From contig JAUWBF010000003.1 of the NCBI GenBank assembly GCA_030601755.1, positions 31,899 through 95,898 on the forward strand: 64,000 bases of DNA, read 5' to 3'. This document shows, piece by piece, positions 1,580 through 44,555 of the stretch (within the stretch, counting starts at the first letter, position 1; each line of letters begins with the position of its first letter). The position numbers and the translations under genes are program-made. A model generated the notes under the pieces. That model made no database searches. It was not told the origin of the DNA and saw nothing but the letters and a program-made list of their open reading frames with translations. Origin of the DNA: Verrucomicrobiota bacterium. GTDB lineage: Bacteria > Verrucomicrobiota > Verrucomicrobiia > Opitutales > Opitutaceae.

Positions 1580-2932
1580 TCAGGGCGCGTAGATCCACCA
1601 GCGACGCTGGGTTTGCTGGCGGTAGACCTCGCATTGTTGGCGCCAGCGGGCCTTGAAGGCGTCGAGGTTGACCGCGGCGCCCTGGGTCGAGAGCGCCTGC
1701 CACCATTCGGTGGAGCCGACGTGGATGTTGAACGAGCGCATCTTGGTGGCGTCGAGCTTGGCGAAGGGGTTGGGCGGATCGTAGCGGCAGGCCAGGCGCA
1801 TGAGTTCGAAGCTGAGCTCGGTGGGGTTCCAGGCGTTCCAGTCGGTGACCTGCACGTAGACGGCCTGGAGCGTGTGGCCCTGGTCGTTCTTCGTGGTGAT
1901 CTTGCGGAAGGCGAGGCCGGGGAGGTTGAGCGCGTTGAGGTCGGCGATGATCTGGTCGGGCGACTTGCCGCGGAACGTGATCGCGCGGAACGGGTGGTCC
2001 TTGCCGATGCCGTGCTTGAAGCCGCTATATTCGCAACCGAGCCCGACCATGGCATAGCCGACGACCGCGGAGAAATCGCGGATCATGGGCGAGGTCGGCA
2101 CGAAGTTCAGCCCGGTCTCGGGCCAGCGCATGGAGCGTTTCCAGCCGCGCATCGGCACGATGGTGAGCCGGCCGCGCTGGCGCACGTCGTCGGGGATCGC
2201 GAGCACGCCGGGAGCGTTGGCCGCCATGCGCGCGAGCTCGCCCATGGTCAGCCCGTGCACGTAGGGAATGCGAAACGCGCCCACGCCGCTCATCCACTCG
2301 CGGTCGAGATGGGGGCCGTCGACCTTGAGGCCGCCGAGCGGGTTGGGGCGGTCGAGGAGCACGACTTCCACGCCGGCCTGGAAACACGCCTCGATGGCGT
2401 AGCGCATGGTGACGTTGTAGGTGTAGGAGCGGACGCCGATGTCCTGCAGGTCGATGACAAGGGCATCGAGACCCTTGAGCTGCTGCGGGGTGGGCCGGCG
2501 GTTCTTGCCGTGCAACGAATACACCGGCAGGCCGCTGCGCGGATCGCGGAAGTCCTCCACGTTCTTGCTGGCGGGCTCGTCGCTGTAGAGGCTGTGCTCG
2601 GGCGAGAACAACGCCACCAACCGGACGCCTGACGCGCGGCGCAGGACGTCGATGGTGCTTTGTCCGCGGCGGTTTACGCCGGCGGCGTGGGTGAGCAGGC
2701 CGACGGTCTTGCCTTGGATCGCGCGAAAGCCCGAGGCCTCGAGCACGTCGATGCCGAGCATGACGGGGTGCACGGGCACGTGGGGCAGGGCGGCGTTGGC
2801 CGGCGCGGGGCGGGCGGCCGGCTCGGTGGCGGCGGGCGCGGGCCGCGAGGCGCTGCAACCAAGAAAGCCGACGGCGATGGTGGCGAGGAGCAGGTGGCAG
2901 CGCAGAAGCGATTGGCGGAAGAGGGCGGTCAT
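1580..2932 (-). CDS. DUF1343 family protein (NamZ-like exo-beta-N-acetylmuramidase), lipoprotein signal
   Basis: Part of ORF 1580..3523. Start at ATG 2932 gives MTALFRQSLLRCHLLLATIAVGFLGCSAS (lipobox-like LGC), then VMLGIDVLEASGF...GLLTHAAGVNRRGQSTIDVL...LFSPEH...LVIDLQDIGVRSYTY, typical of DUF1343. Confidence 0.75.
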   Translation of the reverse strand: MTALFRQSLLRCHLLLATIAVGFLGCSASRPAPAATEPAARPAPANAALPHVPVHPVMLGIDVLEASGFRAIQGKTVGLLTHAAGVNRRGQSTIDVLRRASGVRLVALFSPEHSLYSDEPASKNVEDFRDPRSGLPVYSLHGKNRRPTPQQLKGLDALVIDLQDIGVRSYTYNVTMRYAIEACFQAGVEVVLLDRPNPLGGLKVDGPHLDREWMSGVGAFRIPYVHGLTMGELARMAANAPGVLAIPDDVRQRGRLTIVPMRGWKRSMRWPETGLNFVPTSPMIRDFSAVVGYAMVGLGCEYSGFKHGIGKDHPFRAITFRGKSPDQIIADLNALNLPGLAFRKITTKNDQGHTLQAVYVQVTDWNAWNPTELSFELMRLACRYDPPNPFAKLDATKMRSFNIHVGSTEWWQALSTQGAAVNLDAFKARWRQQCEVYRQQTQRRWWIYAP

Positions 2933-3684
2933 GCGGACGGGCGTGAGTCGGGTGGTGTTTTTTCGGAAGATGTCTGATCGGGAGAGGCCGTGTCGGGAGA
3001 CGCGTGGGCCATGATCGCGCGGCGCAGGCGGACCTTGCGCCGGTGCACCTCGGCCTGCCGCACGGAGATGACCCAGAGCAGGTCGATGATCGTGCCGACC
3101 ACGAGGCCGACGATCAGGCCGCCGATGATGAAGGCGTTGATCTGCGTGCCCACGCCGGAGGTCCAGCGGTGCAGGCGGCCGGTCTCCTCGGGCGAGGGCG
3201 GGGGAGTGGCTTCGCGGATCACCGGCGGGTGCAGCAACGGGTCGATGTCCTTGGCGGGCGCGAGTTCCTCGGCGGACGGCGGGCTGTGGCCGAAGCCCGA
3301 GTGGTGGATCACCGCGCTGCCCACCTGATGCGTCAGGTAAAACGACGGCACGACCGTGAACGGGTTGGTTAAAAACTGCAGGCCGACCAGCACCATGACG
3401 TTGCGCCGCAGCAGCACCGCCAGCGCGAACGACAACAGCATCTGGATGCCCAGCACCGGCAGGAACGCCAGCACCGAGCCCACGTAGATCGCCGGCCGCA
3501 CGTCCGCCGAGCGAAACGACCACAGGTAGGAACGTTTGCGCGCGAACGCCGCGAAGCGCCCGATCACCGGGTAGGTGTGAAACCGAGCCCTCCGGGGCAT
3601 GAAGCGCAGGAAAAACTTCGCGCGCCGGATGCGGGCGAATCTCTCGCGCAGATGCAGGTGGTGCTGATGCTCCTCGGAGGTCAT
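2929..3684 (-). CDS. DUF2062-like membrane protein
   Basis: ORF 2929..3726. RFMPRRARFHTYPVIGRFA...SYLWSFR followed by hydrophobic helices. Its stop overlaps the next gene's start (ATGA at 2929-2932). Start MTSEEHQ at 3684 preferred. Confidence 0.55.
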   Translation of the reverse strand: MTSEEHQHHLHLRERFARIRRAKFFLRFMPRRARFHTYPVIGRFAAFARKRSYLWSFRSADVRPAIYVGSVLAFLPVLGIQMLLSFALAVLLRRNVMVLVGLQFLTNPFTVVPSFYLTHQVGSAVIHHSGFGHSPPSAEELAPAKDIDPLLHPPVIREATPPPSPEETGRLHRWTSGVGTQINAFIIGGLIVGLVVGTIIDLLWVISVRQAEVHRRKVRLRRAIMAHASPDTASPDQTSSEKTPPDSRPSA

Positions 3685-3738
3685 GGGGCGACGCTCAGCA
3701 AACCAGCCCGCGTCCCGCGGCTGCAAACGGAAACCGGC

Positions 3739-3993
3739 TCATTCGTCGCCCACGCGCTCGAAACGCGGCCGCGTCACGCCGTCGATCTCGACCGTTTCCA
3801 AAAACATCGTGCGTGGCCGCACCCACAGGCCGTGGTCGCCGTAGAGCAGTTGATAGACGACGAGTTCCTCCTCGGTCTCGGAGTGGCGGGCGACGCCGAG
3901 GACGCGGTAGTCCTTGCCCTTGTAGTGGCGGTAGCGGCCGGGCAGGGGACCGTCGGCGGGCACGGGGATCGGCGGAAAGGCGGAGTCGGGCAT
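3739..3993 (-). CDS. DUF1653 domain protein
   Basis: Tail of ORF 3739..4371: MPDSAFPPIPVPADGPLPGRYRHYKGKDYRVLGVARHSETEEELVVYQLLYGDHGLWVRPRTMFLETVEIDG. The YRHYKG..Y.V...ARHSET.E..VVY motif matches DUF1653. Confidence 0.6.
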   Translation of the reverse strand: MPDSAFPPIPVPADGPLPGRYRHYKGKDYRVLGVARHSETEEELVVYQLLYGDHGLWVRPRTMFLETVEIDGVTRPRFERVGDE

Positions 3994-4126
3994 GGCAAAC
4001 GTCATTGAAGAGGCAACCGCGCGCGCGTCGCAACCGTCGGCGGGTGAAAAATCGCCGCCGCGCCACGGAGTCGTTGCGCGCCCGACGTTGCGGCCCCACC
4101 GACCGCCGGTCACAGTGCGTCCCATC

Positions 4127-5089
4127 ATGACAAACCTGCGCCCGAACATGCACCATCCGTGGGTGATCGGACATAGAGGAGCCTGCGGCCACTGGCCGGA
4201 GAACACGCTGCCGTCGATTCGCGGCGCGCACGTGCTCGGCGTGGACTGGGTGGAGATCGACGCGGTGCTCACGCGCGACGGGGTGGTCGCGCTCTCCCAC
4301 GATCTTTGGCTCGACGCGGTGACCGACGTGGCCGCGCGTTTCCCGGGACGCGCGCGGGCCGACGGGCGCACCTACGCGGCCGACCTCGACTGGGCCGAGG
4401 TGCAAACGCTGCGGGTCGGCGCGCGGCGCGACGAGGCGACCGGCGCGCCCGTCTTCCCCTCGCGACGGTTGGAGGGCGCGGGCGAGACCGGGCTCTGCCG
4501 GCTGCGCGACGCGGTGGCCGCGTTGCGCGAACTCAACGCCGCCGACGGGCACCGCGCCTGCCGCCGCGTCGGGCTCGTCGTCGAGGCGAAGTTTCCCGCT
4601 TGGCACGCCGCGCGCGGGTTGGACCTCGCGGCGGCGATTCGCGCCGAGCTGGCCGACGCGGGCGACCTGCCGTTGGTCATCGAGACGTTTGACCCGCACG
4701 CGTTGCGCGCCTGGTGTCAACGCGCGGACGAGTGGCCCGAGGCCGGGCGCTGGGGCTGGTGGCAATTGCTGGGCGAAAACGCCTGGGGCGAGGCCGATTG
4801 CGACTATGACGAGCTGCGCACGGCGGACGGTCTGCGGCGCATCGCGGGCTGGGCGGACGGCGTGGCGATCAACCTCGAGCGGGCCACGCCGGATTTTTCC
4901 GCGGCGGCGCGCGCGGCCGGTCTGGCCGTGTTCGCCTACACGGCGCGGGCCGAGTCGGCGGACGGCGGATTGCCCGCGGCGTTGGTGGGCGGCGGGTTGG
5001 ACGGCATTTTCGCGGACCAGCCGGAGATCGCGCTGCGTTGGCGGTCGGAGTGGGCAAACGCCAAGGGTTTGCAGGCGCGGAAAATGTAA
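4127..5089 (+). CDS. glycerophosphodiester phosphodiesterase family protein
   Basis: ORF 3992..5089. ATG at 4127 gives MTNLRPNMHHPWVIGHRGACGHWPENTLPSIRGA...VDWVEIDAVLTRDGVVALSHD, the GDPD signature HRG...PENT...E.D. Confidence 0.75.
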   Translation: MTNLRPNMHHPWVIGHRGACGHWPENTLPSIRGAHVLGVDWVEIDAVLTRDGVVALSHDLWLDAVTDVAARFPGRARADGRTYAADLDWAEVQTLRVGARRDEATGAPVFPSRRLEGAGETGLCRLRDAVAALRELNAADGHRACRRVGLVVEAKFPAWHAARGLDLAAAIRAELADAGDLPLVIETFDPHALRAWCQRADEWPEAGRWGWWQLLGENAWGEADCDYDELRTADGLRRIAGWADGVAINLERATPDFSAAARAAGLAVFAYTARAESADGGLPAALVGGGLDGIFADQPEIALRWRSEWANAKGLQARKM

Positions 5090-5160
5090 AAACCTTTCGC
5101 TTCCCCTCCGCGGACGGCTTGGCGTAAAACCAGCAGCTCCGTCTTCCTGTATAAATAACC

Positions 5161-6696
5161 ATGTCCGTCCGTCGTTTAGCCTTGGTCCGGTGTTTTCTGT
5201 GCGTGTCGCTCTTCGGCGTGTTGCCGGCGGCGGCCGCCATCGAACGCGTCGAGGTCAACTTCGACCACGTGCGCCGGCTCGCGGCGGAGCGCGCTCGGGA
5301 GCCCTACCGCTCCACGTCCGGCGACCTGCCCAAGGGGCTCGCCAAGCTCACCCGCATGGAGGAGCTGGGCATCCGCTTCCGTCCGGGCGGGGAGATCTGG
5401 GGCGGTGACGGGCTGCCCTTCAACCTCGAGCTGCTCCACCGCGGGCCGTTGCGGCCCGAGGCGATGACGGTGCGCGAGTTCAGCGCGACGCATGAGCAGA
5501 CGATCCCGTTTTCCAAAAACTTCTTCGAATACGGCGACGCCGGCCGGGTGGGGTGGCTGCGCTCCTCGCTCAATTTCGCCGGCGTGCGGGTGCGGGCGGC
5601 GATCAACCGCCCGGACGCCTACGACGAGTGGCTGACGTTTGTCGCCGGTGCCTGGCGCGCCATCGGCTCGGGTCAGGCACCCGGCGCGTGGGCCAAGGGC
5701 CTCGCGGTCGACGCCGGCGTGCCCGGCATTACCGAGGAAAGCCCGCTGTTTACCGACGTCTGGCTGGGCAAGCCCGAGCCGGGCGCGCGGCGGTTGACGG
5801 TCTACGCGTTGCTCGACACGCCGAGCCTGACCGGCGCGTATCAATTCCACGTCACCCCCGGCGCCCGCACGACCGCCGAGGTGCGCGTCGAGCTGTATTT
5901 CCGAAAAAACGTGGCGCAGGTCGGCTTCGCGCCGCTGACCACGTCCTTCTGGTATGGCGAAAACACCCCGCGCCCCCCGGGCCTGCTCTGGCCGGAGCGG
6001 CACGACTCGGACGGCCTGCTCGTGCGCACCCGCGGCCAGGCCCCGCTCTGGCGTCCGCTCGGCAACCCCGCCGGCGTGCAACGCAGCGAGTTGACCGTGC
6101 CGGCGCTGGAGGGCTTCGGGCTTTTGCAACGCGACCGCGACCCCGCGCACTATCAGGACCTCGACGTCGCCTTTCACCAAAAACCCTCGGTCTGGATCGA
6201 GCCGGTCGGGAACTGGGGCGCGGGCTCCGTCCGCCTGATCGAGTTGCCCAATCCCCGCGGCGCGGACCGCAACATCATCGCCTTCTGGGTGCCGGCCGCG
6301 CCGCCCGACATCACCCGTCCCGTGCCCATCGCCTACCGCGTGACCTGGGGCGAACCCGAGGCCGCCGCCTATGCGCGCCTCGCGCGGGTCGTTTCCACCC
6401 GCTCCGGCGTGCCGCCGGGCGCGGGCGAGGCGGGCGGACGCGTGCGGCTCTTCTGGGTGGATTTCCAAGGCGAGGCCGTGGCCGGCTTGCAAGACCCCGA
6501 GGTGACGGCGCACGTCGACGCGCGTTACGGCCGAGTGCTCGCCCACCGCCTCGTGCGCAATCCCGGCCTGCCCGGCTGGCGCGTCGAGATCGAGGTCGAG
6601 GCCGACGAGGGCGCGCGCCTGGTGGAATTGAGCTGTCAGTTGCGCCGCGGTTATGAAGCATTGAGCGAAAGCTGGACCACGCCATGGATTCCCTGA
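5161..6696 (+). CDS. opgG: periplasmic glucan biosynthesis protein, OpgG/OpgD (MdoG) family
   Basis: 511-aa ORF with a signal peptide (MSVRRLALVRCFLCVSLFGVLPAAAA). Size and sequence are typical of MdoG, and opgH lies downstream. Confidence 0.85.
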   Translation: MSVRRLALVRCFLCVSLFGVLPAAAAIERVEVNFDHVRRLAAERAREPYRSTSGDLPKGLAKLTRMEELGIRFRPGGEIWGGDGLPFNLELLHRGPLRPEAMTVREFSATHEQTIPFSKNFFEYGDAGRVGWLRSSLNFAGVRVRAAINRPDAYDEWLTFVAGAWRAIGSGQAPGAWAKGLAVDAGVPGITEESPLFTDVWLGKPEPGARRLTVYALLDTPSLTGAYQFHVTPGARTTAEVRVELYFRKNVAQVGFAPLTTSFWYGENTPRPPGLLWPERHDSDGLLVRTRGQAPLWRPLGNPAGVQRSELTVPALEGFGLLQRDRDPAHYQDLDVAFHQKPSVWIEPVGNWGAGSVRLIELPNPRGADRNIIAFWVPAAPPDITRPVPIAYRVTWGEPEAAAYARLARVVSTRSGVPPGAGEAGGRVRLFWVDFQGEAVAGLQDPEVTAHVDARYGRVLAHRLVRNPGLPGWRVEIEVEADEGARLVELSCQLRRGYEALSESWTTPWIP

Positions 6697-38863: not shown

Positions 38864-38901
38864 GGGTGGCGGCGTTTGGCCGTGGACGCTTGGGGTAAGA
38901 A

Positions 38902-39175
38902 TTTTAACGCGAAGCCGCGGAGGCGCAAAGCGGCGCAAGGGGGGATGGTCCGGACGAGTTGAGTAATCCGCATGGCACGCTGTATTCAGGCCTTAACCAC
39001 CGTCGACACAGACGGGCGCGGATTGACCGGCTGGTATCCGTGATAATCCGTGCGATCCGTGGTCAAAACCTTGGTTTAAAAGTCCCGGACTAAGGGGGCG
39101 GCCAAAGGAGGACCGCAACCTTCGGCTGCATCACAGGGCCAGTCTGATGATGAACCCTTTGCCTCGCGGTTCTTG
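38902..39175. repeat. REP family 1 copy with degenerate partner arm; interior carries ATCCGTG x3
   Basis: 38902-38945 is TTTTAACGCGAAGCCGCGGAGGCGCAAAGCGGCGCAAGGGG. ATCCGTG occurs at 39036, 39046 and 39055. A degenerate opposite arm, CCCTTTGCCTCGCGGTTCTTGC, lies near 39150. Confidence 0.5.
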
Positions 39176-39743
39176 CACGATGTCGCGCAGCTCTTGCACG
39201 ATGTCGCGCGGGTAATGCGCGGTGTCGTGCTGTTCGTGCATGGTATCGTGCGGTTCGTGAGCGATGTCGTGCAGTTCGTGCGCAGTGTGGTGCAGTTCGT
39301 GCACGGTATTTGCGCAGGGCGTCGAGCAGGCGTTCGCCGAATTTCTTTTGCAGGACGACGTTGGTGCGGGTGTGGGCCTTGATTTCGTCGCGCAGGAGTT
39401 TTTCGAGCAACTCCACCGCGAGGTTCTTTTGCGGCATGGCGCGCACGTCTTCCAAAAACTCTTTCGAGAGCAGGCCGATGTTGGGCTTCTTCAGGCCGGC
39501 GAGGGCGAAGATGTCTTCCACGCCTTCGGAGACGACGGCGTTGTCGAGGATGCGGCGGAGGGCGGAGTGTTTTTCGGCCTCGGTGAGTTTCTTGTCCACC
39601 GTGGTGTATTTCACGATGGCGGCTTTCACCGCGCCGAAGAAAGCGATCTCGGTGCGCAGCTCCTCCGCCTCGTCGAGCGTGCCGCAGAGGGCGAAGGCGC
39701 GGGTGATGGCGATGACGAGGTCGAGGAAACGCTGCCGCTCAGT
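39090..39743 (-). pseudogene. hsdR: type I restriction enzyme HsdR, C-terminal fragment only
   Basis: Minus frame directly after the TGA at 39744-39746: TERQRFLDLVIAITRAFALCGTLDEAEELRTEIAFFGAVKAAIVKYTTVDKKLTEAEKHSALRRILDNAVVSEGVEDIFALAGLKKPNIGLLSKEFLEDVRAMPQKNLAVELLEKLLRDEIKAHTRTNVVLQKKFGERLLDALRKY. This is the HsdR C-terminal (DUF3387-like) region. It has no helicase or nuclease part and runs into a repeat array below 39306. Confidence 0.75.
39165..39305. repeat. degenerate 21-bp tandem repeat, about 7 units
   Basis: Units include cgcgcagctcttgcacgatgt / cgcgcgggtaatgcgcggtgt / cgtgctgttcgtgcatggtat / cgtgcggttcgtgagcgatgt / cgtgcagttcgtgcgcagtgt... They translate as (ARTARHR)n in the hsdR frame. 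Confidence 0.75.
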
Positions 39744-40871
39744 TCACTTTGGGTTCAGAACCAGCATCATCTCTTTCGCATGTTGTCGCGCCGCACGCCC
39801 ACCTTCATCTGCGCGGCCATCGCCTGTTCCGCCTAGTGTGCTAAACCTGCTGGATACCTGCGTTTCGCCAACGTGGAAGTGTTTACTCGCGATCTCCCTG
39901 ACTGTGGTGCCTGAAAGGCCATTGGAGCACTCATGATCCGGAAAGGTTAGGATTGCTCGTGCACTTCGGGAAGCGACGGTCTCAAGCAGGTTATCAAGCG
40001 CGCCCGGTGATTCAGAACCAACACTATATTTTGAACGTGGACGCAGCTCCGGTGCTGGGTAGCGACCGATGCCGGAAACTTCGCCGCATGAACCTTGCGC
40101 GATCGTTTCCAAAACATGATAGAACCGGCTGTAATGAACACCCGAATACGGGGGGTCGATGAATGCAAGGTCTCCCTCCTCAAGGCGAGTTGCCGCCTCA
40201 TTCGCATCGGCAACTTCAGCTCGTCCTTGCTGCTGAGCGCATAGAATCCCGATGGATTCGAATGCGTTGTGAGTCTTCTGCACGATATCCCTGTTCCAAG
40301 CTTCGGCCAAATACCGCTTCGATGTTTTCGTCGGTTGGAATGGCTGGGCGGTATGCCCTGGAGCTGCGGCGCACTGACTTGCGGCGTGAATGACCGCGGC
40401 GAGCGCGACTGTTCGTGAAGGTTCCCTTTCAGGCAGCTTTGCGCATAACGCGTCAATCCACACAGCTTGCTTCGCGCTAAAGTAATGGCCACCGTATGCT
40501 TTCGTAATGGGTAGTTCCGACTGAGCGCTGCACCATTTGCGACACGCCGAAACGGACGCAATGGTGACCTTGGTCGTGTCCGGAACCCCGAGCCTTTTTA
40601 CAAGTGATTCAGCTCGTCTCTTCCAAGCGGGAAAGAAGGCATTTGGATCAAGCGCCTCCTGCCGGTGGATCACAGCTCCAGCAAGAACGGCACTGTAAGC
40701 TTGGAGATCAAAAGCCAATGAGGGAATATTGAATCGGCAGGCTACATGAACTGACACGGCGGCCGAACCCGCGAAGAGGTCAATGAAACGGCGGGACTTG
40801 GGAACCTCTCGGCCGAGCAATTCGCCCAGTCCGTTGCCAAGCATAGCTCGCTTTGATCCCATATACTTCAT
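39744..40871 (-). CDS. DNA methyltransferase, Dam-like (D12 class; FxGxxxV and DPPY motifs)
   Basis: MKYMGSKRAMLGNGL...RFIDLFAGSAAVSVHV...LAFIDPPYSGVHYSRFY. AT-richer than the flanks. Its ATG overlaps the upstream ORF's stop (ATGA at 40868-40871). Confidence 0.65.
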   Translation of the reverse strand: MKYMGSKRAMLGNGLGELLGREVPKSRRFIDLFAGSAAVSVHVACRFNIPSLAFDLQAYSAVLAGAVIHRQEALDPNAFFPAWKRRAESLVKRLGVPDTTKVTIASVSACRKWCSAQSELPITKAYGGHYFSAKQAVWIDALCAKLPEREPSRTVALAAVIHAASQCAAAPGHTAQPFQPTKTSKRYLAEAWNRDIVQKTHNAFESIGILCAQQQGRAEVADANEAATRLEEGDLAFIDPPYSGVHYSRFYHVLETIAQGSCGEVSGIGRYPAPELRPRSKYSVGSESPGALDNLLETVASRSARAILTFPDHECSNGLSGTTVREIASKHFHVGETQVSSRFSTLGGTGDGRADEGGRAARQHAKEMMLVLNPK

Positions 40872-41507
40872 AATCCAATCCCCCACAAACCTACGCGCTC
40901 AAGCTCGTCAATCACAGCGAGGGCTGAACTCTCACTCGTCCGAAAACTGCGTATGTGGTTCTGGTCTCCCGTTAAGACCCAAAGTTCAATGTCCTCAATG
41001 GCTTTTTCGACATCCAACCAAAGGCTTTGAGGGTCGTCTGGTTCATTACCGTCATCCCAAAGTGCGAGTTCGGCCCCAAGATTGTGCCACCAGAAATGCA
41101 ATCGTGTCTTTTCAACTCCAGAATTGATAAGGAGCTGCCGAGACGCGCCAGTCGCGAGGCGAAGAAGCATCAACGCTCTCGCTAGCATCCCGAGTTGGGG
41201 CGAAGACGCATCGGAGGTTGAATCGCTATTCACTTTGCTGATGACCAAGCTAGCCATTCCGGACATAGTCGGCGATCTCAACGGATCGCTTCTCGTCGTG
41301 CCTTCGTTGAATCCCGAACTGTCGATTGCGGGCTGAATCATTTTGGAGAGTCCGCCGATAAATACCGCAAAGCGCTCTGAGATGCTTGGCGTTCATCGTG
41401 AACATGAAAAACCGTGGTTGCGGCTTCTTCCTTCCGAGCTTAGCGTCGAACTCGACTTCATCCCATTCGGGTAACCATTGCTTTACTGGAATCGCGGGTA
41501 TTTGCAT
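40868..41507 (-). pseudogene. DndB/DGQHR-like N-terminal fragment (ORF 41250..41507) plus overlapping ORF 40868..41341: either a frameshifted gene or two small coupled genes
   Basis: ORF1: MQIPAIPVKQW...PRFFMFTMNAKHLRALCGIY...FGIQRRHDEKRSVEIADYVRNG, then TAG. ORF2, in another frame, continues ...MASLVISKVNSDS...LLINSGVE...LWVLTGDQNHIRSF. The family call is weak. Confidence 0.3.
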
Positions 41508-41520
41508 AAACGGGAGCGGG

Positions 41521-41716
41521 TTAATTCAGCGTGTAGTTGTAGAAGAGCTGGCCCGGGAGGGCGAGCATGCACTCGAGGGGGGGCGGCCTCGACGAGGGCG
41601 CCTCGGATTTCGCCTTCGCCCTTGGTGTTGGACGACATGGAGCCGTTGGCGAGCAGCAGGGCCATGGAGCTGTGCTGGGCGAGGTGCTCGTGGTTGACGA
41701 TGGTATCGGTGCGCAC
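41521..41716 (-). pseudogene. hsdM: hsdM 3' fragment (second copy), frameshifted and truncated
   Basis: ...HLAQHSSMALLLANGSMSSNTKGEGEIRGALVEA. After a run of C, a shifted frame reads LECMLALPGQLFYNYTLN, then a stop at 41521. Confidence 0.7.
41604..41686. repeat. 83-bp direct repeat, copy A (hsdM-derived)
   Basis: Matches 42871-42953 with 5 mismatches by my hand alignment. Confidence 0.85.
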
Positions 41717-41718
41717 GA

Positions 41719-42828
41719 CTAAAATTCCACGGTGATGTCGTGACCGAACTTCAGACCTGCGACTTCGGCGGCGAGCCGAATAATGGTCTTTTTGAGGACG
41801 TTATTGAGATTGGTGGCAACCAGCCAGCCGCCTAGCAGTTCGGCGCGCATCTCGCGAAGGTCTTCGCGGTCGGGATAAAGTTCTTCGGGTGTGCGTGCGA
41901 TGTAGCGCCGCTTGCGTCCCTGCGCGTCGGGATGCTGCGAGCACCGCTCGAGAAAGGTCGGGTCTAGTTTGCCGAGTTCGCGGAGAACCAAGAGCATCGC
42001 GTCCTTGGCGTTTTGGTAGGCGAAGACTTTTCCTCGGATCGTGAGATTTCCCCGGCGAGAGGTTTCTGCGATGGCACGGTCAGCAGGCATTGGGCGGGAA
42101 GGAGTTTCCCGTGAAGGCGCGGTAGATGCGGTGGGGGCGGGGCGTGAAGGCTGCAGCGGATATGATTGGCCCAATCCTGCAAGGAACTCGGCAACGTCAT
42201 CCTCGTCGGGGCGGATGCCTGCGCGTGACTCAACCGCGTTAGTTAGAATCTCAACAAGTAGCTCGTCGCCTTTTTCGACGAGATCACGCCATGCGAGAGG
42301 GATCGCCGCCTTTGCTTGCGATTGTCGATTTCGATTACGGTATTCGGCACGGGCGGTTTCGAGGGCTTGGCCCGATTGAATGCCGTGCGGGGAAAGATAA
42401 CGTTGGAGGGCGGCTGCAGCTTCGGCCGTGGGGCGTTCGTAGAGGTCGAGTTTATAGACGCGACGATCCTCATAGCTGCCTTGTTCAGCGGGAAGGTAGA
42501 AACTCCACGTTCTGCCGTCGGTGAGCACGACAAACGGAACGCCGGTGTGGAATGCGTATTCGAGCGCTTGGCGCACAGCGTCTTCGGCTTTGCCCGGCTG
42601 CTTAACCTCAAAGAAAACGGATGGCTTGGTCGGGGGATGACATAGGGCAAAATCGACGCGCCCTTCGCCGGTCTGATATTCGGGCCACACGACGTTTGTA
42701 TCCCAAGTATCCCAGCCGAGTTCTTGGAAAATACGGAGGACGATGCCCTGGGAGATCGCCTGTTCGTTGGGGAATCGGCCTTGGCGGAGACGTGCGGTGA
42801 TGTCGGCTAGAGTTGTATCTAGAGGCAT
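41719..42828 (-). CDS. PD-(D/E)xK nuclease-like protein (HsdR_N-type N-domain) with unknown C-terminal domain
   Basis: ATG at 42828: MPLDTTLADITARLRQGRFPNEQAISQGIVLRIFQELGWDTWDTNVVWPEYQTGEGRVDFALCHPPTKPSVFFEVKQPG...VVLTDGRTWSFY (D...EVK motif). The C-terminal ~130 aa has no recognised domain. Confidence 0.6.
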   Translation of the reverse strand: MPLDTTLADITARLRQGRFPNEQAISQGIVLRIFQELGWDTWDTNVVWPEYQTGEGRVDFALCHPPTKPSVFFEVKQPGKAEDAVRQALEYAFHTGVPFVVLTDGRTWSFYLPAEQGSYEDRRVYKLDLYERPTAEAAAALQRYLSPHGIQSGQALETARAEYRNRNRQSQAKAAIPLAWRDLVEKGDELLVEILTNAVESRAGIRPDEDDVAEFLAGLGQSYPLQPSRPAPTASTAPSRETPSRPMPADRAIAETSRRGNLTIRGKVFAYQNAKDAMLLVLRELGKLDPTFLERCSQHPDAQGRKRRYIARTPEELYPDREDLREMRAELLGGWLVATNLNNVLKKTIIRLAAEVAGLKFGHDITVEF

Positions 42829-42833
42829 GGCGG

Positions 42834-44213
42834 TTAGGCAGCGAGAGGGGGCTTGAGCAGAGTCGAGTTTCGGATATCGCCTTCGCCTTTGGTGTTGGAC
42901 GACATGGAGCCGTTGGCCAGCAGCAGGGCCATGGAGCCGTGCGGGGCGAGGTGGTGGAGCATGTGCTGCACCCAGGCGAAGTTGGCGTTGCTCTTGGGCG
43001 GCGTGCCGTAGGCCCAGCGCGGGTCGCCTTCCAGCCGGCCGTCCCACCATTCGCTGATGTTGAAGTGCGGATTGGCCATCAGTTGTCCTTTACTGCGCGC
43101 AGGACCCGCAAAATGCGATTTGTCGTTGGAGATCGCGCTTCCGCGCGGGGCGGTGTCGGCGTGGAGGTCGGGGTGCTGGTCGGAGAGGAAGGTGTCGGCG
43201 GGTTGTTTGCCGAAATTAAAGTCGATGCCGCGGATGGCCATGTTCATCGCGGCGAGGCGCCAGGTGGTGGGGTTGCTTTGTTTCGGCCTCGTGAAATTCG
43301 GCCTCCCCCTGCGGGCACGCTTGGCGCGACCAAACGGACGCCCGGTCCGTTTGCCCTGGCCGTAAACGGAGATCGCGCCGAGCCGGCCGCCGTGGGCCTC
43401 GATGAAGGCCTCGCTCTGGACGAAGAAGCCGCCGGAGCCCATGGCGGGGTCGTAAACCTTGCCGGAGTAGGGCTCGAGCATCTCGACGATGACGGAGACG
43501 ATGCTCTTGGGCGTGTAGTATTGGCCGCCCTTCTTGCCCTCGGCCAAGGCGAACTGGCCGAGGAAGTATTCGTAAACGTGGCCGAGGATGTCCTTGGCGT
43601 TGAGGCTGGCGTGGCGGAAGGGGATGGAGGAGACGACTTCGCTGATGAGGCCGACGAGCTTGGCGGGCTCGATCTGGAGCTGCATGTAGCGGTTTTTCTC
43701 GATGACGCCCTTTAGCCGGGGGTTTTCCTTTTCGACGGCTTCGAGGGCGTCGTCGATGAGGCGGGCGGCAGAGCGGAAGGTGTATCCCGCGCCGTCGGCG
43801 AGGGTGAGGGCGGTGTCGGGCGCGAGCGGGGCGCTGTCGCGGATGGTTTTCCAGCGGGCGAGAGGCGGGACCCAGAAGACGTTTTGCGCGGTGTAGTAGT
43901 CGCGGTCTTCGAGTTCGTCGGCGATGGCGGCGGCGTAGGCGGCGTCGGTCTTGTGGTCGGCGCGGTCGAGAAAGTAGTCGCTCTGCGGGTCGCGGAAGGC
44001 GGCTTCGAGCTCTTCGCGGCGGAGGTCGAAGGCGTCGGAGACGTATTTGAGGAAGATGAGGCCGAGGACGGCGTGCTTGTAGACGGCGGCGTCGAGATTG
44101 GAGCGGAGGCGGTCGGCGGCGTTCCAGAGCTTCTTGTCGAGGTCGGCGAGGAATTGCTGTTCCTCCTCGTTCGTGGTCGTGCGGGCGGGGGTCTGCGCTT
44201 TCGAATCAGCCAT
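42834..44213 (-). pseudogene. hsdM: type I R-M methyltransferase HsdM, C-terminally truncated, with two in-frame insertions and an altered motif IV
   Basis: N-terminus LWNAADRLRSNLDAAVYKHAVLGLIFLKYVSD, then GGQYYTPKSIV and DPAMGSGGFF. YGQ-[25 aa]-QSNPTTWRLAAMNMAIRG. HAD-[24 aa]-LMANPHFN (NPPF changed to NPHF). Ends ...GEGDIRNSTLLKPPLAA at the insertion junction. Confidence 0.7.
42871..42953. repeat. 83-bp direct repeat, copy B (inside hsdM)
   Basis: See 41604-41686. Confidence 0.85.
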
Positions 44214-44457
44214 GCGTAAAGCGTTTGTGAACAAGCGGACGCTCTTGGCAAGGGCGGAGGAGGGGACGGACTAAGTATGAAGTTTGAAGGAAGAAGGGGC
44301 GGACGAAGCGGCGGGAGGGCGGGGGAAAGTCGCAGGTCGAAGGTCTGAAGGTCGAAGGAGCGAGAGGTGGACTGAAGACCGAGGGACGGACGGAGGGCGA
44401 CGAGGGAACAAAGGCGGAGGCAGGCAGGATGCCTGCGCTACTTGGGGCGGTGTGCCT

Positions 44458-44555
44458 AGGTGGACGCGGACGTCCCCGGCCGCGTCGGTTTGGCGGTGGT
44501 TCGCGCGTTATGTGGGATGACGGGGCAGACGCGGCCCGGAGGTCCGCGTCCACCT
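44458..44555. repeat. long inverted repeat (about 28-bp arms, 41-nt loop)
   Basis: Left arm AGGTGGACGCGGACGTCCCCGGCCGCGTC (44458-44486). Right arm GACGCGGCCCGGAGGTCCGCGTCCACCT (44528-44555). A REP family 2 half-site, GGCAGGCAGGATGCCTGCGCTAC, lies at 44419-44441. Confidence 0.8.

Follow-up and report, generated by a model that had tools for sequence, protein, structure and literature searches.

A probable deletion-inactivated copy of a DGQHR protein-methyltransferase cassette within a decayed type I restriction-modification locus of an Opitutaceae bacterium

The window, by which we mean the whole stretch of 64,000 nucleotides (nt) analysed here, carries on its minus strand a type I restriction-modification (R-M) locus interrupted by a cassette of three open reading frames (ORFs): two short ones, ORF1 and ORF2, and a gene for a DNA methyltransferase. 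What were the two short ORFs, and how did the methyltransferase come to be the only complete gene among the three? The original prediction described these ORFs, the boundaries of the cassette, its lower G+C, the ATGA overlap between ORF2 and the methyltransferase, and its position in the place of hsdS and most of hsdR, and all of these sequence-level statements hold. As for the origin of the cassette, we consider it very probable that 39744-41507 is what remains of a horizontally acquired three-gene operon (A, B and methyltransferase), in which a deletion between A and B left the methyltransferase as an orphan.

The deletion becomes visible by comparison with two relatives in which the operon is intact, L001 and L007, the latter from a Limisphaerales metagenome-assembled genome (MAG). 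Gene A encodes 509 amino acids (aa) in both, gene B 444 aa in L001 and 449 aa in L007, and the methyltransferase 375 aa in both. The junctions in L001 are of 1 nt between A and B, and of 4 nt between B and the methyltransferase. BLAST aligns the window to L001 in two blocks, 41509-41251 to 255-513 and 41197-39743 to 2793-4247, and in the protein alignment with L001 the homology to B picks up again directly at 41250. With respect to L001, 2,226 bp are missing (positions 514-2739), and the joint shows 1 nt of microhomology, a single shared A. ORF1 (41250-41507, 85 aa) is made of A residues 1-85; its aa identity with the N-terminal part of A is 98% in the case of L007 and 88% in that of L001. Its TAG stop (41252-41250) was created by the junction, with TA coming from A codon 86 (TAT, Tyr86) and G from gene B. 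ORF2, from “SLVISKVNSD...” on, has 78% aa identity to residues 318-444 of L001 B. The DNA lost comprises the DGQHR motif and the rest of A, as well as the N-terminal 317 codons of B. These alignments show a deletion, not a frameshift in one gene, with ORF1 and ORF2 as the ends of two genes.

The cassette had been proposed to hold an inactivated partner beside a surviving orphan methyltransferase, and this part of the proposal stands. The cause it gave, a frameshift, is replaced by the 2,226-bp deletion between two genes. A second proposal, that the three genes make up a compact module of unknown type, fails on the intact relatives, which carry full-length A and B.

The overlap of ORF1 and ORF2 in different frames, together with the state of the genome (a draft of 152 contigs), could also be read as a frameshift or assembly error, with one gene split by 1 nt whose correction would give a known DGQHR enzyme. 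We give this explanation almost no credence. In L001 and L007 the two ORFs align to separate genes, 2,226 bp apart, and correcting a putative 1-nt error in 41240-41350 would not restore a gene. Repair of the frame was tried and brought no gain, the joined ORF1 and ORF2 scoring 27.5 bits with the DGQHR model TIGR03187 against 28.1 for ORF1 alone. Furthermore, Logan contigs from runs SRR14872663 and SRR14872665 (4.7 and 4.2 kb) match window 43451-38758 and 43454-39280 at 100% identity, from the two hsdM pieces through the junction and the methyltransferase to the hsdR remnant. Since two per-run contigs match completely across the junction, the structure is not a one-off assembly artefact, and an error is refuted at the contig level. 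The 3.55-Mb genome (96% complete) contains only this one A fragment and one B fragment.

In terms of protein families, ORF1 had been likened to the DGQHR/DndB proteins, in agreement with its match to the N-terminal part of TIGR03187 (profile positions 6-58, E 1.5e-6). Its 28.1 bits lie below the cut-off of 58.85 because ORF1 is only a fragment of the domain; the window thus holds a fragment of a DGQHR-family (TIGR03187) member and not a member. The intact A proteins P0123 and P0121 reach 70.7 and 80.5 bits against the same cut-off, and type-2 A reaches 44.6 bits with PF14072 (cut-off 29.1). The motif VIDGQHR is present in A of L001 and L007. In the window no DGQHR motif is found, the region VIDGQHRLWAF (~169-179 of L001/L007 A, about residue 172) being deleted. 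LTGDQNHIR, noted earlier as sitting at the expected DGQHR site, was considered as a degenerate form of the motif and rejected: it aligns to STGVNGHIR near the C-terminus of L001 B, and the true motif belongs to the deleted DNA. ORF2 has no family match in Pfam, NCBIfam or PADLOC.

At least 418 stretches in the genome collection, across many phyla, encode a relative of the methyltransferase. We examined 82 relative loci, to which all the linkage counts refer. In 78 of them the gene immediately upstream of the methyltransferase, on the same strand, is a DGQHR gene, so that the homologues are not solitary. Both A and B are full length in 61 loci. Gene B comes in a long form of ~430-455 aa (44 loci) and a short form of ~280-290 aa (29 loci), while about 8 loci are a two-gene variant without a recognisable B. 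In such variants (L011, L014, L024, L027, L031, L050, L073 and L075), another DGQHR-core protein of ~370-790 aa adjoins the methyltransferase. Frameshifts in A or B with the methyltransferase ORF open are seen in 4 loci, and a large deletion as in the window in none. No conserved fourth gene, nuclease or helicase, was found around the module in these loci. In the library of papers searched, we found no description of a system made of a DGQHR protein, a partner and a D12 methylase.

The invariant residues at 79-247 of B (H79, E110, R112, H149, D207, D214, R218, N219 and others) all lie in the deleted part. In terms of selection, the A remnant differs from L007 A in 2 of 85 residues, with a synonymous divergence (dS) of 0.78 and a ratio of nonsynonymous to synonymous divergence (dN/dS) of 0.013, and the B remnant has a dN/dS of 0.16 against L001. 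Since nearly all of this divergence arose while the genes were still under selection, the deletion looks recent. The low ratios of the remnants could also speak for a shortened cassette that still functions, in which the C-terminal domain of B (~127 homologous residues), and perhaps the 85-aa stub of A, serve the methyltransferase as accessories in a streamlined modification-only module. ORF2 is still open (132-157 aa) and still coupled through ATGA, and the segment of B that was kept is a discrete helical C-terminal region, missing from the short B2 (~285 aa). However, low dN/dS is also expected from a recent deletion, the architecture is found in no other locus among the 82, and the B frame is reached only via an out-of-frame leader. 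Moreover, the A stub lacks the motif, and the B stub lacks every invariant B-family residue except R347. A functional short cassette thus seems very unlikely to us, and we retain the reading of ORF1 and ORF2 as debris of a deletion.

Gene B resembles nothing in the collections searched. Pfam finds no family in the 97 members of its long family (B1), nor any match for proteins P0122 and P0124. B has no NCBIfam or PADLOC match and no PDB relative by sequence profile. Its AlphaFold2 model is all-alpha, with a predicted local distance difference test score (pLDDT) of 93.9 and a predicted template-modelling score (pTM) of 0.94. With this model Foldseek gives no match, the best hits having E 0.18 with a template-modelling score (TM) below 0.2 in PDB, and E 0.036 with TM 0.09 in BFVD. 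The model of A has a pLDDT of 85 and no match in PDB with the full-length chain as query (domains not searched separately). Profiles of A, B and the methyltransferase found nothing significant in PDB; prion matches at E>0.1 are chance. In PADLOC-DB v2.0 there is no match for ORF1, ORF2, P0123, P0124 or P0122, and a weak DndB match for P0121 (E 1.6e-4). The two forms of B, B1 (~445 aa) and B2 (~285 aa), match weakly in hhalign (E 0.049, probability ~1%), and in their alignment the suggestive motif pairs GYYAELRA/GYYSSHY, GTH..W/REH.FYW and RN..SY/RN.ANY line up.

The cassette is also a mosaic. Its A N-terminus and methyltransferase are closest to L007 (98% and 90% aa identity), and its B remnant (40871-41250) is 78% identical to L001 B (1788-3122) and only 50% to L007 B (4655-6004). 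At the nucleotide level, the match to L007 is regained at 40915, ~44 nt ahead of the methyltransferase start. From these identities, B alleles seem to have been exchanged between cassettes.

The methyltransferase had been described as Dam-like and translationally coupled to the upstream ORF, and both points are confirmed, by the D12-class model PF02086 (51.1 bits, cut-off 22) and by the ATGA overlap. Both the N-terminal FxGxG-like motif for S-adenosylmethionine (AdoMet), DLFAGSAAV, and the C-terminal catalytic DPPY motif, FIDPPYSG, are present. PADLOC assigns it to the generic MTase_II models (E 1e-19). With the Dam family TIGR00571 it scores 23.9 bits, far from the cut-off of 114.85, and only over the N-terminal 48 residues. 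It is not a Dam orthologue, and GATC specificity therefore cannot be assumed. A profile of the family matched no methyltransferase in PDB at E<=0.001.

The protein is 90% identical to that of L007 and 87% to that of L001. Where at least 18 of 19 homologues agree (146 columns) it deviates at none, when the homologues themselves deviate at 0-10, and its dN/dS is 0.09. Thousands of relatives of the methyltransferase exist, and it was not found in 60 genomes of the same genus, family and order. This absence, taken with the low G+C of the cassette (0.53-0.56 over 40000-41400 versus 0.60-0.75 in the flanks, 10-15 points lower), indicates that the cassette was horizontally acquired.

We then place the cassette in its surroundings (Table 1). 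The stop codon of the hsdM fragment (TAA, 41523-41521) and the ATG of ORF1 at 41507 are separated by a spacer of 13 nt, or 14 by coordinate difference. ORF2 as listed (40868-41341, 157 aa) is in a different frame from ORF1 and includes an out-of-frame leader that overlaps it. Its TGA overlaps the ATG of the methyltransferase as ATGA at 40871-40868. The methyltransferase starts at MKYMGSK, the GTG at 40886 being an extension made by the ORF finder, and neither its Shine-Dalgarno-like GGGGGA nor its ATGA link with the B remnant was touched by the deletion. After its stop codon (TGA, 39746-39744) the remnant of the C-terminal domain of HsdR follows in the same frame. Beyond the last recognisable hsdR codons (…LDALRKY) there is a degenerate 21-bp tandem array at 39160-39305, in which a repeat search found two adjacent 21-nt units at 39160-39201.

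Table 1. Features of the cassette and of its two flanks in the window, in order of transcription.
Feature	Position	Strand	Evidence or place
hsdM 3' fragment (second, frameshifted copy), ending ...LPGQLFYNYTLN*	41521..41700	-	Left flank of the cassette
Gene A remnant (DGQHR/DndB-like, ParB superfamily), codons 1-85 of 509	41253..41507	-	TIGR03187; identity to A of L007 and L001
Deletion junction, between 41251 and 41250, within the TAG of ORF1	41250..41252	-	Alignment with both sides of L001
Gene B remnant (uncharacterised all-alpha partner), ~codons 318-444 and stop	40868..41250	-	78% aa identity to L001 B
D12-class N6-adenine DNA methyltransferase, 375 aa, intact	39744..40871	-	PF02086; PADLOC MTase_II; identity to relatives
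HsdR C-terminal-domain remnant	39306..39743	-	Right flank of the cassette; PF11867 profile positions 63-206 of 329, E 6e-50

No complete type I system is found here. The hsdM adjoining the cassette, which shows HsdM motifs (ANGSMSSNTKGEGEIR), is frameshifted and truncated at ...FYNYTLN*, no hsdS ORF exists between hsdM and hsdR, and HsdR is reduced to part of its PF11867 domain. The hsdM side of the cassette recurs in L007, where window 41653-41245 is 83.5% identical to 2978-3387. The truncated hsdM of L007 stops at ...FNYTLN*, with the gene A ATG 14 nt further on, a junction common to the window, and ~30 nt of hsdR-remnant sequence directly follow the methyltransferase stop. In L001 this end of hsdM survives as a heavily decayed trace. 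Because L007 shares both outer junctions, the replacement of the hsdM 3' end, hsdS and most of hsdR is ancestral to this sub-lineage, and the comparison places the internal deletion in the window lineage only. Among the 82 loci an hsdM neighbour is seen only in L007, plus the decayed trace in L001, and the association of the module with type I loci is not general.

Several further observations concern hsdM itself. An 84-nt direct repeat of hsdM (94% identical), at window 41603-41686 and 42870-42953, brackets an intact gene of 443 aa as listed, or 369 aa from a later start, with an HSDR_N / PD-(D/E)xK-like core (PF04313, E 6e-7). The upstream copy of hsdM has 74-79% identity to L007 and the downstream fragment 83.5%, a difference which suggests that two hsdM sources were joined by recombination. 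BLAST blocks between the window and L007 hsdM break at two short in-frame insertions (43275-43354 and 43083-43154) that are not in L007, and the window hsdM reads NPHF instead of NPPF. By its sequence it looks like a decaying, still-open pseudogene. L007 hsdM (2117-3109) has an internal deletion of its own (…ADYVLAN|GSMSS…), which removes the catalytic motif NPPF, so the type I system is dead in L007 too. A full-length hsdR (1006 aa) is encoded on the opposite strand of L007, and downstream there are McrBC-like genes.

From these results a sequence of events can be proposed. In an ancestor shared with L007, the operon would have taken the place of the hsdM 3' end, the entire hsdS and the greater part of hsdR. 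Later, in the window lineage only, one illegitimate deletion of 2,226 bp would have fused A codon 86 to B codon 318, out of frame, and taken out the DGQHR catalytic core of A along with every conserved residue cluster of B. In the intact copies, we infer an R-M-like logic: the methyltransferase would mark the host DNA, and A, of a ParB-fold superfamily of NTP (nucleoside triphosphate)-binding or nuclease proteins, would work together with B to restrict or sense unmarked DNA. In the window the restriction half would be dead, and the methyltransferase, the gene that could not go first, would persist. ORF1 and ORF2 would be non-functional leftovers, and translation of ORF2 might at most aid translational coupling. 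If a lack of methylation makes the partner harmful, the order of loss seen here, with the partner gone and the methyltransferase kept, is the only one that would be tolerated. In the trio, translational coupling is tight, the spread across phyla is patchy and the location is in defence islands, all hallmarks of a self-contained, mobile modification-linked module.

A and B may not restrict at all. As an alternative, they could be regulators or targeting factors of the methyltransferase, in the way DndB serves dnd, and would never have been a defence system; their loss would then deregulate methylation. DndB, the best-studied DGQHR protein, has been described as a regulator and not as a nuclease, with reports of a negative, ATP-modulated control of transcription (PMC4507180; taken up in PMC10853773), and the PDB searches recognised no nuclease fold in A or B. 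Against this, the module is self-contained and moves horizontally over many phyla, its surroundings are defence islands (the type I locus in the window, hsdR and McrBC in L007), and two large conserved proteins would be costly for mere regulation. Furthermore, a ParB-superfamily protein with a helical partner recurs within R-M operons (PMC3710099, PMC3632139). We judge a purely regulatory role unlikely, although it is the most serious of the alternatives.

Some points weigh against our reading of a decayed operon with R-M-like logic, in addition to the role reported for DndB. The R-M-like role of A and B is drawn from gene linkage and from the one case of the window, and searches of PADLOC models, Pfam families (in the case of B) and PDB folds found no support for it. 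The methyltransferase persists as an orphan and probably still methylates the chromosome, an activity predicted from its sequence. No sigma-70-like promoter was found in 38900-44500, so that its expression is putative. Lastly, the two Logan contigs may share a sampling series with the MAG, and a minority intact allele may exist in the population.

That the intact trio is an undescribed family of R-M-like immunity, with a DGQHR protein and a novel all-alpha protein in the place of a restriction endonuclease, is a suggestion we make tentatively, with the balance slightly against it. If true, the window would be a natural “restriction-minus, modification-plus” derivative, and would agree with a pair of partners whose toxicity in the absence of the methylase allows their loss only as long as the methylase is kept.

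The locus itself is a case of ordinary decay of an R-M-like system: a recently deletion-inactivated copy of a widespread uncharacterised cassette within a decayed type I locus. In an annotation of this genome, ORF1 and ORF2 are best labelled pseudogene fragments, and the methyltransferase an orphan D12 enzyme for N6-methyladenine (m6A) in a decayed defence island. The one-step loss of both non-methylase genes, with the methylase perfectly conserved, is the asymmetry expected of an R-M-like pair. As a methylase-only allele, the locus offers a natural negative control beside the intact allele of L007 with identical flanks, and a dated natural experiment on this cassette. The mechanism cannot be learned from this copy, whose value as a natural methylase-only allele is modest.

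Among known systems, the closest in sequence are the DndB/DGQHR proteins (TIGR03187, PF14072; ParB/Srx superfamily), whose models the intact A of the relatives passes and to whose N-terminal QR-containing part ORF1 aligns. The resemblance does not extend to DndB proper: TIGR03233 gives 15.5 bits against a cut-off of 328, and no dndCDE genes lie nearby. Unlike in dnd, the partner of A is a D12 methyltransferase and not the phosphorothioation machinery.

In architecture, the cassette is analogous to the HEPN(MAE_28990)-ParB-DNA methylase operons predicted by Anantharaman et al. 2013 (PMC3710099, Table 1; PF18737). These likewise have a ParB gene, a helical partner with a 4-nt overlap and linked DNA methyltransferases, and lie within R-M loci. 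We compared three bona fide PF18737 loci, in which a DUF262-type ParB (~365 aa) is followed by a HEPN protein of 220 aa, adjoining a gamma-class, type I or C5 methylase. None of the 97 B1 members matches PF18737 or another HEPN Pfam family at E<=0.05, and profiles of A, B1, B2 and the methyltransferase give no match to the three loci even at E 10. By these comparisons, the cassette and the PF18737 operons appear analogous, with no demonstrable homology. In one locus, L091 (G113:C29:47500-57000), the genes for a DUF262 ParB-like protein (367 aa) and HEPN_MAE_28990 (227 aa), which overlap by 4 nt, are found between hsdS and hsdR; its type I operon is apparently intact, and the ParB-HEPN pair takes the same slot as the window cassette. 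Makarova et al. 2013 (PMC3632139) described ParB-like COG1479 proteins inside type I loci, and DndB as a ParB-like protein combined with HEPN.

The DUF262 ParB-like NTPase/nuclease proteins GmrSD, SspE and BrxU share the ParB/Srx N-terminal domain and its use in modification-linked defence (PMC4619093, PMC3632139). They are modification-dependent single proteins fused to DUF1524/HNH nucleases, whereas gene A belongs to the DGQHR branch, has no fused nuclease, would need a second protein, B, and comes with a protective methyltransferase. Foldseek and hidden Markov model (HMM) searches against the solved structures of GmrSD, SspE and BrxU gave no match.

Finally, the cassette can be compared with type II R-M systems that decay to an orphan Dam-class methyltransferase. 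It differs from them in what was lost, a DGQHR protein and an unknown protein instead of a recognisable restriction endonuclease. As in those systems, an alpha-group D12 enzyme is intact and the linked non-methylase genes are destroyed, the cassette appears horizontally acquired and has a low G+C, and the order of loss is the one expected if the partner is toxic without methylation.

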